This document shows, in pieces, positions 48,325 to 51,135 of a stretch of DNA of 64,000 bases. The position numbers were made by a program, and so were the translations under genes. How positions within the stretch are numbered: the first letter of the stretch is position 1; every line of letters starts with the position of its first letter. The notes beneath the pieces were generated by a model that was given only the letters and a program-made list of their open reading frames with translations, was not told the origin of the DNA and searched no databases. Origin of the DNA: a bacterium (GTDB lineage Bacteria; Patescibacteriota; Minisyncoccia; Phycocordibacterales; UBA918); NCBI GenBank assembly GCA_043719295.1, contig JAYSUD010000001.1, forward strand, positions 97,700 to 161,699, in the 5' to 3' direction.

Positions 48325-51135
48325 ATGCATAAAAAATTTGATAATAAGGAGATTGAAGCTCGATGGCAGGAGATCTGGAAAGAAAGTGGTATCTATGATG
48401 TGGGAGAACGCGATACCAAAAAAGAGAAGGAATATATCCTTGTTGAGTGGCCATACCCCTCTGGTAACCTCCATATTGGTCACTGGCATGCGTTTGCAGT
48501 GCCTGACATCTATGCGCGCTTCCGCCGCATGAACGGGGTGCAAGTACTCTATCCAATGGGTTTTGACGCATTTGGGCTTCCTGCTGAGAACGCTGCAATC
48601 AAAAGAAATACAAGTCCAAAAGAATGGACAGAAGGCAATATTGTGTTTATGCGCAACCAGCTTAACAGTATGGGTGCCTCATTCTCGTGGGACAAAACAA
48701 CAAGTTCAACAGACCCAAGTTACTACAAATGGACACAGTGGATGTTTACCGAATTCTTTAAGAAAGATATTGCCTACCGTGGTAAGGGAATTGTAAATTG
48801 GTGCCCTGGATGCAATACCGTTATCGCAAATGAGCAGGTTCTTGCCGATGGAACCTGCGAACGTTCAGGAGACATGATTGAGAAGAAAGAAATGCCTCAG
48901 TGGATGTTACGGATTACGCAATATGCAGACAGACTTATTGATGACCTTGATGGACTCAATTGGCCAGAGCAAATTAAAGACGCACAACGAAACTGGATAG
49001 GGCGGTCACAAGGTGCAGAACTAACCTTTAAAATTTCAACAGGAGACGAAGTAACAGTCTTCACAACAAGACCCGACACACTCTATGGAGCTACCTACCT
49101 TGTCCTTGCCCCGGAACACCCCCTCATAGAAAAGGTATGGGGTGGGACCTCGAACAATGAAGAGATTGGAGTCTATGTGCATGCTTCAAAACAAAAGGCG
49201 GAGCAAGATAGACTTGATGCAACCAAAGAGAAGACAGGGGTGAAACTTGAGGGGATTACTGCGATTAACCCAGCATCAGGGGAAGAAATCCCGGTCTATA
49301 TTGCAGACTACGTACTTGGAGGATATGGAACAGGAGCAATTATGGCAGTACCAGCGCACGACGAACGAGATTTTGCATTTGCTACAAAGTTTGGACTACC
49401 GATAACACAAGTTGTACGTAAGGTATTTGGAACACCACTTTCGAATCCTGTGACAAGAAAAGCAGTAGGTTCGATAGTACATAATCCAAAAACAAATTTA
49501 TATTTAATTCAGCATAGTCACGAATTTAAAAATCATTCTTTCATATTCGGAGGTCTTGAAGCAAACGAAACGTATGAAGAAGCGGCAATTCGTGAGACAA
49601 AAGAAGAGACCGGATACGACACGAAGTTCGTTAAGTTTATAACTCAAGAAACCGAAGCACATTTTTATCACCCTGGAAAAAATGAAAATAGGACACTCAC
49701 TAGTCGACGAGTACTCTTAGAACTTGTTTCTGATGCTTCGTCTACTGTTGGTGTAGAAGAACTTAAAAAACAAGAACCGGTTTGGTTGACCTATGATGAA
49801 ATTTGTAAAAAATTCACTATAGAAGAAGATCTGTACGCAATTGCACAACTTCGTGAATCAAAACTATACACAGGAGTAGGAACACTCTATAACTCAGGAG
49901 AATTTGATGGGATGGATTCAGAAGAAGCTAAAGAAAAAATTGTTGCTAAGGTTGGAGGGAAGATGACTAATACGTATCGACTTCGTGACTGGTCTATTGG
50001 ACGTCAGCGATACTGGGGCGTACCAATTCCAATTGTGTATGACCCGCAAGGTGTTGCACATCCTGTCCCAAAAGAACACTTACCTTGGTTGTTGCCTGAG
50101 GATGTTGATTTTAGACCTACAGGTGTTGCTCCTCTTACAAAAAGTGAAGAGCTCAAAAAGAGAACAGTAGAAATCTTTGGAGAAGGATGGACACCTGAAG
50201 TTGAAACTATGGATACGTTTGTAGATTCCTCATGGTACTTTTTGCGCTACTTAGACAACCAAAACAATGGTGAACTTTCCTCGTCTATGAAACAAAAAGA
50301 ATGGATGCCTGTTGACATCTACTTTGGAGGCGCTGAACACACAACAATGCACCTTCTCTATTCACGTTTCTGGCAGAAAGCGCTATTTGACCTCGGTTTA
50401 GTTCAAGATAGCGAACCATACAAGAAGCGCATCAATCGTGGGCTCATCTTGGGCCCTGACGGTAACAAGATGAGTAAGAGTAAAGGGAACGTTATTGATC
50501 CTGATGATCACGTTAAAACAGTGGGTGCTGATTGTGTAAAAATGTACCTCTCGTTTATGGGGCCATACGGAGAGACAGCAAACTATCCATGGGATATGGG
50601 AGGTATTGTTGGTGTCCGCCGATTCCTCGAGCGTGTATACGGACTTGATACGCATATCACAGAATCTGAGAGTGAAGAAGTAACGCGTCAACTCCACAAA
50701 ACTATCTCGAAGTTAGAGAACGATGTCCCACTCTATAAATTCAACACCGCGATAAGTGCGATGATGATTTATATTAATCTTGTTGAAAAAGACGGATTAA
50801 CACTTGAATCGTATCTAGTATTCTTGCGTCTACTTGCGCCATTTGCTCCACACCTTACAGAAGAACTGTGGGCCATTCAAGGTAAAATAACTTCAATTCA
50901 TCTTGAATCGTATCCAAAATCAAATCCACTTTATGTTGTAGATACAAAGGTGACTATTGCTGTCCAAGTTAATGGAAAAATGCGTGGAAGTATTGTTGTG
51001 CAAAAAGATGCAGATGAATCTTTTATCTTGAATAGAGCTACAGAAACAGAAACGATAGCAAAATACCTCACAAACGGAGTTACGCGACACATTTACGTCC
51101 CAAACAAAATTATCAACATTATGACTAACGTATAA
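48325..51135 (+). CDS. leuS: Leucyl-tRNA synthetase with an inserted Nudix hydrolase domain
   Basis: HIGH: [14 protein letters not shown]. Editing-domain markers [20 protein letters not shown] and [39 protein letters not shown]. Residues ~365-515 hold the Nudix box [23 protein letters not shown]. Confidence 0.9.
   Translation: [936 protein letters not shown]

Follow-up and report, generated by a model that had tools for sequence, protein, structure and literature searches.

The leuS gene in a 64,000-nucleotide stretch of a Patescibacteriota genome (class Minisyncoccia, order Phycocordibacterales; GenBank assembly GCA_043719295.1, contig JAYSUD010000001.1, positions 97,700 to 161,699; hereafter the window) encodes a leucyl-tRNA synthetase (LeuRS) that carries a Nudix domain nested inside its CP1 domain. 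Among relatives of this enzyme, the Nudix domain is exchanged as a cassette between related genomes; it comes in 15 or more divergent types, may be replaced by a short loop (the null allele) and is duplicated in tandem in some cases. We read the protein as a complete LeuRS with an embedded accessory, exchangeable Nudix pyrophosphohydrolase that would clear synthetase-linked nucleotides, and hold this reading, taken as a whole, with about as much belief as doubt. The features of the gene are as follows, in window positions.

48325..51135, + strand: leuS, bacterial-type LeuRS with embedded Nudix domain, 936 residues (open reading frame; TIGR00396)
48472..48483, + strand: HIGH motif of the synthetic site, residues 50-53 (sequence)
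48988..49431, + strand: CP1 editing domain, N-terminal three quarters, residues 222-369 (PF13603 model positions 1-145 of 185)
49060..49080, + strand: Thr-rich motif FTTRPDT in CP1, residues 246-252 (sequence)
49357..49371, + strand: editing Asp motif HDERD in CP1, residues 345-349 (sequence)
49417..49872, + strand: variable tract, residues 365-516, made up of linker, Nudix domain and linker and exchanged as a unit between LeuRS alleles (drop in DNA identity)
49459..49863, + strand: inserted domain proper, predicted Nudix fold, residues 379-513 (135 residues), type T1 (alignment gap; PF00293; AlphaFold2 model)
49549..49617, + strand: Nudix box, residues 409-431 (match to GX5EX7REUXEEXGU)
49864..49989, + strand: C-terminal part of CP1, resuming past the insert (second PF13603 stretch; Thermus thermophilus LeuRS residue 376 onward)
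50467..50481, + strand: KMSKS motif, residues 715-719 (sequence)
50680..51021, + strand: anticodon-binding domain, residues 786-899 (PF08264, 64.3 bits)

The initial annotation of this stretch had recognised a Nudix hydrolase domain in the LeuRS frame. This observation is confirmed by a Pfam match to PF00293 above its cut-off (residues 377-500; E = 4.6e-16, 59.5 bits against 21.1) and by the fit of the Nudix box to the consensus GX5EX7REUXEEXGU. The box is complete and its catalytic Glu residues are in place, as had been claimed; the match to the consensus is not perfect, as the first U is a Thr. When the insert was modelled alone with AlphaFold2 (AF2), it gave a beta-rich sandwich with the box helix at residues 417-429 and a predicted local distance difference test (pLDDT) score of 95.6. 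A Foldseek search of the PDB with this model returned 536 matches at E <= 1e-3, the best 50 of which are all Nudix-family entries. The top match is 2AZW (TM 0.71/0.79), and the further neighbours include mycobacterial MutT1 and Rv2985, the Thermus Ndx1 Ap6A hydrolase and the Aquifex Ap4A hydrolase, as well as human NUDT2, Escherichia coli RppH, the decapping effector AvrM14 and Chlamydia CT771 among the best 50. Sequence identity to these fold neighbours is 14-24% in the Foldseek alignments; the best PDB matches by sequence are 2AZW, AvrM14 and the lupin Ap4A hydrolase. The model thus bears out the proposal of a discrete Nudix fold: the insert is predicted to be a complete Nudix alpha/beta/alpha sandwich nested in a Pro-rich surface loop of CP1, and would be an active metal-dependent pyrophosphohydrolase. 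That it is a real, functional Nudix enzyme module is, in our view, very probable.

The insertion site was originally placed after the editing domain, but the insert lies within CP1. It splits the PF13603 match at model position ~145 of 185. In the alignment with T. thermophilus LeuRS, the extra segment (residues 379-513) is flanked by R375 and A376, at a distance of 28 residues beyond D347, the editing Asp. The window residues at the junction align with the native Thermus loop ERPGEPLPEPLER. The nucleotide span first given for the insertion, 49415-49870, was shifted by one base against the reading frame and should read 49414-49869; the segment that is truly extra relative to T. thermophilus is shorter (49459-49863, 135 residues). 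Measured against insert-less close relatives of 793 residues, the extra segment amounts to 143 residues. Solved LeuRS structures have no additional domain at this site, the best 50 Foldseek matches to our full-length model all being LeuRS chains of at most 876 residues, and the T. thermophilus alignment has a gap here; the statement that a typical LeuRS lacks a Nudix domain at this point therefore holds.

Apart from the insert, the gene product has the features expected of a complete bacterial LeuRS, with apparently intact synthetic and editing sites, in line with its first description as a 936-residue leuS product with a HIGH motif. The NCBIfam profile TIGR00396 (leuS_bact) matches at 897.4 bits against a cut-off of 548.4, in two stretches broken by the insert, and Pfam recognises the class I catalytic domain, the PF13603 editing domain and the anticodon-binding domain. 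Across 120 homologues, H50, G52 and H53 of the HIGH motif, the KMSKS motif, and T247, T248, R249, T252, D346 and D349 of CP1 are invariant; in a pairwise alignment, D349 corresponds to the editing residue D347 of T. thermophilus. The full-length AF2 model, computed with an alignment of 120 sequences as input, has a mean pLDDT of 89.5 and a predicted TM score of 0.80 (pLDDT 92-97 in the insert region), and matches the solved Thermus, E. coli and Neisseria LeuRS structures with target-normalised TM scores of 0.77-0.83 (Foldseek). Its sole low-confidence stretch is the KMSKS loop. The leucine-specific domain that should precede this loop is missing, T. thermophilus residues 580-637 being without a counterpart (window 50440-50490, approximately residues 705-722). 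The T. thermophilus (1H3N/2BYT) and E. coli (4AQ7/4ARC) enzymes therefore share the fold (target-normalised TM 0.82-0.83), HIGH, KMSKS, Thr-rich motif and editing Asp with the window LeuRS, but have the leucine-specific domain before KMSKS and no Nudix domain, whereas the window LeuRS shows the reverse. There is no second leuS within the window.

The architecture is not peculiar to one genome. We searched 5.8 billion proteins with the full-length sequence and kept the best 120 clusters (61-87% identical; from NCBI, JGI, ENA and Logan); an identical NCBI/Logan entry was also returned. The insert is present in 106 of these 120 closest LeuRS clusters, drawn from all four sources, and absent from the other 14. 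The named carriers are Paceibacteria, Parcubacteria or Patescibacteria. We also scanned the GTDB species genomes, using a T1-cassette profile, and obtained 21 loci, 18 of which are LeuRS genes with a Nudix domain at the same site; as the profile was built from the T1 alignment, this survey is biased towards type T1. The 18 loci come from Paceibacteria, Kaiserbacteria, Nomurabacteria, Moraniibacteriota and others, with four from metagenome-assembled genomes (MAGs) labelled DPANN or other archaea. The insertion is thus widely found in relatives from the candidate phyla radiation (CPR), where the initial annotation had suggested looking for it, and most LeuRS of Paceibacteria and related CPR lineages have the Nudix insert.

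The four archaeal-labelled entries (L019, L021, L023 and L024, in MAGs labelled Pacearchaeota, Woesearchaeota and Methanosarcinales) are bacterial-type LeuRS with the Nudix domain at the same site and divergent C-terminal ends. They could represent horizontal transfer into DPANN archaea or mis-binning.

Sequence conservation within the insert is concentrated in the Nudix box. Among 102 homologous inserts, G409 and E424 are conserved in 100%, E427 and E428 in 99%, R423 in 87% and E415 in 86%, at an overall identity to the window of ~36% for the insert and 73% for the LeuRS core; the metal-binding Glu residues E424, E427 and E428 are thus all retained. The ratio of nonsynonymous to synonymous divergence (dN/dS, Nei-Gojobori) in pairs of the same type lies at 0.08-0.13 in the cassette and at 0.03-0.07 in the core, values that are approximate because dS is near or above 1 in two of the three close pairs. 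These ratios indicate that the Nudix domain is under purifying selection nearly as strong as that on LeuRS itself.

The histories of the insert and of its host enzyme are uncoupled. Pairwise identities of core and insert are uncorrelated (r = 0.04 over 5151 pairs), and there are pairs with nearly identical cores and hardly related inserts: P0052/P0063 (96% core, 22% insert), P0061/P0120 (94% and 22%) and P0017/P0118 (94% and 24%). At the DNA level, leuS of L003 and L005 is 80-100% identical on both flanks and drops with sharp edges to ~40-50%, which is unalignable, across residues ~360-528. In the protein, the cassette begins directly past ...KFGLPIKQVV and ends directly before a conserved G.L. 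stretch. Single-linkage clustering at 45% identity, a threshold on which the count depends, gave 15 cassette types, the largest being T1 (n = 37, including the window), T2 (n = 32) and T3 (n = 10). With the types, the insert-less state and the tandem state as characters, Fitch parsimony requires at least 55 changes on the core tree (120 leaves), against a possible minimum of 16 and 72 +/- 2.5 for shuffled labels; the core trees are neighbour-joining trees on p-distances and carry no support values.

Loss and duplication are part of the same pattern. The 14 insert-less relatives (793-821 residues) have only a linker of 9-38 residues at this site and are scattered over the core tree. Insert-bearing and insert-less leuS genes share one syntenic locus, followed by a sigma70_r4/HARE-HTH gene and then by DUF8128; one insert-less relative has a locus syntenic with the window, with no free-standing Nudix gene within 10 kb of its leuS. 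We considered simple deletion as the source of the insert-less allele, but the close pair P0045/P0104 does not support it: the divergent tract of the short-loop allele starts ~60 nucleotides upstream of the insert and the linker sequence is unrelated, so that the pair looks like an allele exchange. L077 differs from L076 in having the variable tract swapped for a 21-residue linker. The converse, a tandem form, is seen in P0021, where a T3 cassette is followed by a T1 cassette and a duplicated 'GKGYLTNS' junction separates the two.

Base composition sets the cassette apart from the gene around it. In all 13 loci compared, its GC content is lower than in the remainder of leuS (average difference 7 points), and 12 of the 13 show a deficit of 15-20 points against the host gene in GC at third codon positions (GC3). 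In the window, the cassette has 35.8% GC against 43.0% for the rest of the gene, and 22% GC3 against 38%. One same-type pair has a dS of 0.31 in the cassette and 0.88 in the core, as expected after recent transfer. Vertical inheritance with fast divergence is ruled out, because cassettes cannot be aligned even in pairs whose cores are 94-96% identical and whose flanks are ~88% identical in DNA, and because of the lower cassette dS in that same-type pair. Homologous recombination through the highly conserved LeuRS flanks would be the simplest mechanism of exchange.

To find other hosts, we used the insert as query against 1.84 billion cluster representatives in an exhaustive HMMER search, which gave 311 matches at E <= 1e-3; an insert-only word-index search gave no matches. 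Among the best 150 of the 311 proteins, the domain matches longer than 80 residues comprise 80 inserts at the LeuRS site seen in the window. The N-terminal hinge of CP1, a second LeuRS site, accounts for 13 more, a third (near residues 453-470) for one, and other or free-standing proteins for 61. In some LeuRS (P0121, P0122, P0189, P0132), both the hinge and the window site are occupied, giving two or three Nudix domains in one protein. Prolyl-tRNA synthetases (ProRS) are also hosts: in P0217 and P0272-P0275 (641-674 residues), the Nudix domain lies between the anticodon-binding and C-terminal domains. These are five clusters among the 120 nearest ProRS, and their named relatives are labelled Nanoarchaeota or Woesearchaeota. 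P0263, a fragment of a valyl-tRNA synthetase, has a T1-like Nudix domain (residues 655-793) directly past a DUF559/Vsr-like endonuclease domain (residues 501-598), a neighbourhood that is possibly a hint of endonuclease-assisted mobility. The remaining long hosts are LeuRS fragments and proteins made up of Nudix repeats only, with five repeats in 1905 residues and three in 379 (P0264 and P0126). No host enzyme other than a synthetase is found among these best 150 matches.

The free-standing homologues (154-183 residues) have their own start codons and the family features common to the cassettes. In a set picked by similarity to T1, their distances to the major cassette types match those among the types themselves, and they are interleaved with the cassettes. 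Because the free-standing relatives are equally close, the module appears to be an enzyme complete in itself that passes back and forth between free and embedded forms. Other domains are found in frame at other sites of Nudix-bearing LeuRS from the same lineages: a Ser_hydrolase/alpha-beta domain (P0168, P0192, P0230, L021), a HAD phosphatase domain (P0129, P0156), and a Ham1/ITPase domain in P0245 (residues 955-1182, E = 1e-59). P0184, P0234 and P0245 also contain what we take, from the motif DGTKTIETRALN, to be an ASCH-like domain; Pfam gives no match there.

We propose that a 135-residue autonomous Nudix domain has been spliced in frame into the Pro-rich CP1 surface loop of an ordinary LeuRS. 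There it would act as a Mg2+-dependent pyrophosphohydrolase, a self-contained accessory tethered to the synthetase and standing outside its charging and editing mechanism. The domain is absent from some relatives, is replaced by versions only 20-25% identical, occurs at other sites and in other synthetases and has free-standing forms, so it should be an accessory that is not required for charging; that it acts autonomously in this way we think probable. As the hosts found for this Nudix clade are all synthetases, its substrates may be compounds made or met at synthetases, such as adenine or other nucleoside 5'-polyphosphates. The fold neighbours suggest dinucleoside polyphosphates (diadenosine tetraphosphate, Ap4A) or polyphosphate and cap structures on RNA 5' ends as candidates. 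Ap4A and its relatives are classical side products of synthetases, and clearing such compounds at their source would constitute a clean-up function.

We regard an ApnA/NpnN-like substrate class as tentative, with the chances against it: it is a weak inference from the fold neighbours, because every subfamily model stays well short of its cut-off. None of the characterised Nudix subfamilies could be assigned, since RppH, YtkD, MutT, NudC, ADPRase and NudI each miss their cut-offs by a wide margin. Several observations weigh against our proposal. The best RppH score of the window insert is 29.1 bits against a cut-off of 139 (NF001937); the other cassette types likewise reach 19-29 bits against RppH cut-offs of 116-139. 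ApnA hydrolases have a conserved Tyr ~16-18 residues past the box that stacks on adenine. The insert has Y448, 17 residues past the box and conserved in at least 60% of inserts, but in the hidden Markov model alignment it is offset by 2-3 residues from the Tyr of lupin Ap4A hydrolase. Type T3 (10 of the 102 inserts) has Gln and Ala at two box positions and may differ in activity. A mere clean-up enzyme would leave the confinement to synthetases and the rapid turnover of types unexplained. Finally, the Ham1, HAD and alpha/beta hydrolase inserts, all 'house-cleaning' hydrolases, fit a general piggy-back model at least as well as they fit a substrate peculiar to synthetases.

Such a model would make the cassette passive cargo: in these streamlined genomes, any small, compact hydrolase gene may lodge in a permissive loop of an essential protein that tolerates insertions, and have no function related to LeuRS. 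The Ham1/ITPase, HAD, Ser_hydrolase and ASCH-like domains inserted in CPR LeuRS are what it would lead one to expect, as are the frequent loss, replacement and duplication of the Nudix domain and the interleaving of free-standing homologues with cassette types. It does not sit well with a search of 1.84 billion representatives in which every host identified, among the best 150 of 311 matches, is a synthetase, nor with the purifying selection that acts on the cassettes and almost equals that on LeuRS, and we consider it unlikely.

The initial annotation had itself suggested a coupling in cis, in which the Nudix site receives the products of LeuRS (Ap4A formed from Leu-AMP and ATP, or non-cognate adenylates that have been released) and breaks them down before they can escape. 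The restriction of the hosts found to aminoacyl-tRNA synthetases, the prominence of ApnA hydrolases among the fold neighbours and the clustering of insertion sites on and around CP1, beside the path of the acceptor end, are all consistent with such an arrangement. A co-adapted interface or channel is nevertheless unlikely, because cassettes only 20-25% identical are freely swapped between near-identical LeuRS backbones; moreover, the domain is repeatedly absent, sits at other sites and in unrelated synthetases, and has free-standing homologues. There is also a chemical objection. Nudix enzymes cleave diphosphate linkages, whereas aminoacyl-adenylates are mixed anhydrides, which makes hydrolysis of Leu-AMP the chemically weakest of the functions suggested for the domain. 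Overall, we give coupling in cis a low probability.

Alternatively, the domain could repair or decap tRNA ends, removing a 5'-triphosphate, a nucleotide cap (NAD, Np4N) or a toxin-placed pyrophosphate or ADP-ribose-type adduct at the acceptor end and so restoring a chargeable tRNA. RNA pyrophosphohydrolases (RppH, YtkD) recur as the best subfamily matches, Nudt16-like (PF22327) matches are found in sister domains, and the best PDB sequence match of the T1 profile is the mRNA-decapping AvrM14, which has a PG-K-x3-R motif in common with it; all hosts, furthermore, bind the tRNA acceptor stem. Set against this, every subfamily score is far below its cut-off and the ProRS insertion lies past the anticodon-binding domain rather than near the acceptor end. 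This explanation, too, seems improbable to us.

The behaviour of the cassettes in populations raises the question of biological conflict. They might be variable immunity or counter-defence modules, directed for example against nucleotide-type synthetase inhibitors or signalling nucleotides and maintained by frequency-dependent selection. Ancient, divergent alleles shuffled across lineages, polymorphism in presence and copy number, a foreign-looking composition and the insertion of other small-molecule hydrolases in the same LeuRS lineages would all fit, and the separate NCBIfam type of isoleucyl-tRNA synthetase (IleRS) with a GNAT domain is a possible parallel. On the other hand, dN/dS within types (~0.1) gives no hint of positive selection, and PADLOC gives only 22-25 bits to a candidate family (PDC-S07), mostly over the Nudix-box region. 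Viral contigs yielded only generic Nudix domains of 28-40% identity and partial length, and no inhibitor or toxin partner was identified. We consider the conflict module very unlikely. A broader version, in which CPR and DPANN synthetases serve as docking frames for horizontally circulating Nudix and other hydrolase cassettes whose diversity is kept by conflict (inhibitor detoxification, tRNA-end repair), we judge to be quite unlikely.

An artefact, whether a chimeric assembly or an intein-like element excised from the mature protein, has only the compositional dip of the insert in its favour and can be set aside as extremely unlikely, because more than 100 independent clusters and assemblies carry the architecture in frame and under purifying selection. 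The assembly chimera is ruled out on these grounds. A self-splicing element is ruled out as well: the window protein has no Hint, intein or homing-endonuclease match and no splicing motifs, the N-terminal junction of the insert is Arg/Lys rather than a Cys, Ser or Thr nucleophile, and the Asn-Ser pair at the other end is part of NSGEF, a conserved LeuRS motif that is equally present in enzymes lacking the insert. No flanking repeats were found at the cassette borders except for a 12-nucleotide chance repeat.

Our preferred reading, an accessory Nudix enzyme embedded in LeuRS, has partial precedents. Small free Nudix enzymes (2AZW, Ndx1 1VC8, Aquifex 3I7U, NUDT2, CT771, RppH, AvrM14) have the same fold and box as the insert; the window domain differs from them in being embedded in another enzyme, in being only 14-24% identical and in reaching no subfamily cut-off. 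In NadM-Nudix (nicotinamide mononucleotide adenylyltransferase/ADP-ribose pyrophosphatase, 2QJT; architecture noted in PMC7824862), which is among the weaker matches to the insert, a HIGH-motif enzyme of the nucleotidyltransferase fold is likewise joined covalently to a Nudix domain, whose substrate is a related nucleotide. That fusion is terminal, with a fixed partner and a known substrate, whereas the window LeuRS has a polymorphic, exchangeable insertion in an internal loop. The NCBIfam family NF040702 ('isoleucine--tRNA ligase, N-acetyltransferase domain-containing') also combines a class I synthetase with a small-molecule-modifying domain, but the synthetase, the fold (GNAT) and the position are different.

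As an analogy only, the specificity subunit HsdS of type I restriction systems is comparable in that its variable domain and conserved frame have different histories. In HsdS, divergent target-recognition domains between conserved flanks are shuffled by homologous recombination. HsdS, however, is a non-essential specificity subunit, whereas the LeuRS frame is essential and its variable part would itself be an enzyme. We rate the architecture as that of a multidomain synthetase with an accessory enzyme, and its population-genetic behaviour as unusual. The initial annotation knew of no such fusion as a described LeuRS architecture; our full-text literature searches likewise found no description of a LeuRS-Nudix architecture, and the database labels are mostly 'class I tRNA ligase family protein' or 'leucyl-tRNA synthetase'.

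For completeness, we describe the surroundings of the gene. The loci compared with the window were L001, L005, L029-L031 and L077. In most relatives, leuS is followed by a conserved 341-residue protein with sigma-70 region 4 and HARE-HTH, and then by a protein of ~450 residues, which is DUF8128 in relatives; the corresponding window neighbours are at 51242-52267 and 52452-53819. Some relatives, but not all, have a small rhodanese gene between leuS and these two genes. Elsewhere, the window encodes UvrA (1782-4484), the ATP synthase alpha subunit (30577-32145), an AcrB-type RND pump with its membrane-fusion protein (37219-41956, - strand) and a single tRNA-Ala (9282-9355). There are no other Nudix genes and no Rfam families besides this tRNA in the 64-kb window.

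Aminoacyl-tRNA synthetases rank with the most conserved and most thoroughly studied of enzymes, and the CP1 domain of LeuRS is a target of drugs, the benzoxaboroles. The presumably catalytic Nudix domain within CP1, unrelated to it and common throughout a major bacterial radiation that is largely uncultured, is a candidate for a physical link between tRNA charging and the turnover of nucleotides and dinucleoside polyphosphates. It also provides a natural case of an essential gene that tolerates the exchange, loss and duplication of an internal enzyme domain, with a bearing on domain-insertion engineering and on accessory functions in streamlined genomes. On a practical note, many of these proteins are annotated merely as 'class I tRNA ligase family protein', although each would seem to be its genome's LeuRS. 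If the turnover of cassettes reflects conflict, it would represent a new kind of variable locus, and cassettes kept in circulation in this way would amount to a hypervariable immunity locus hidden within an essential housekeeping gene.

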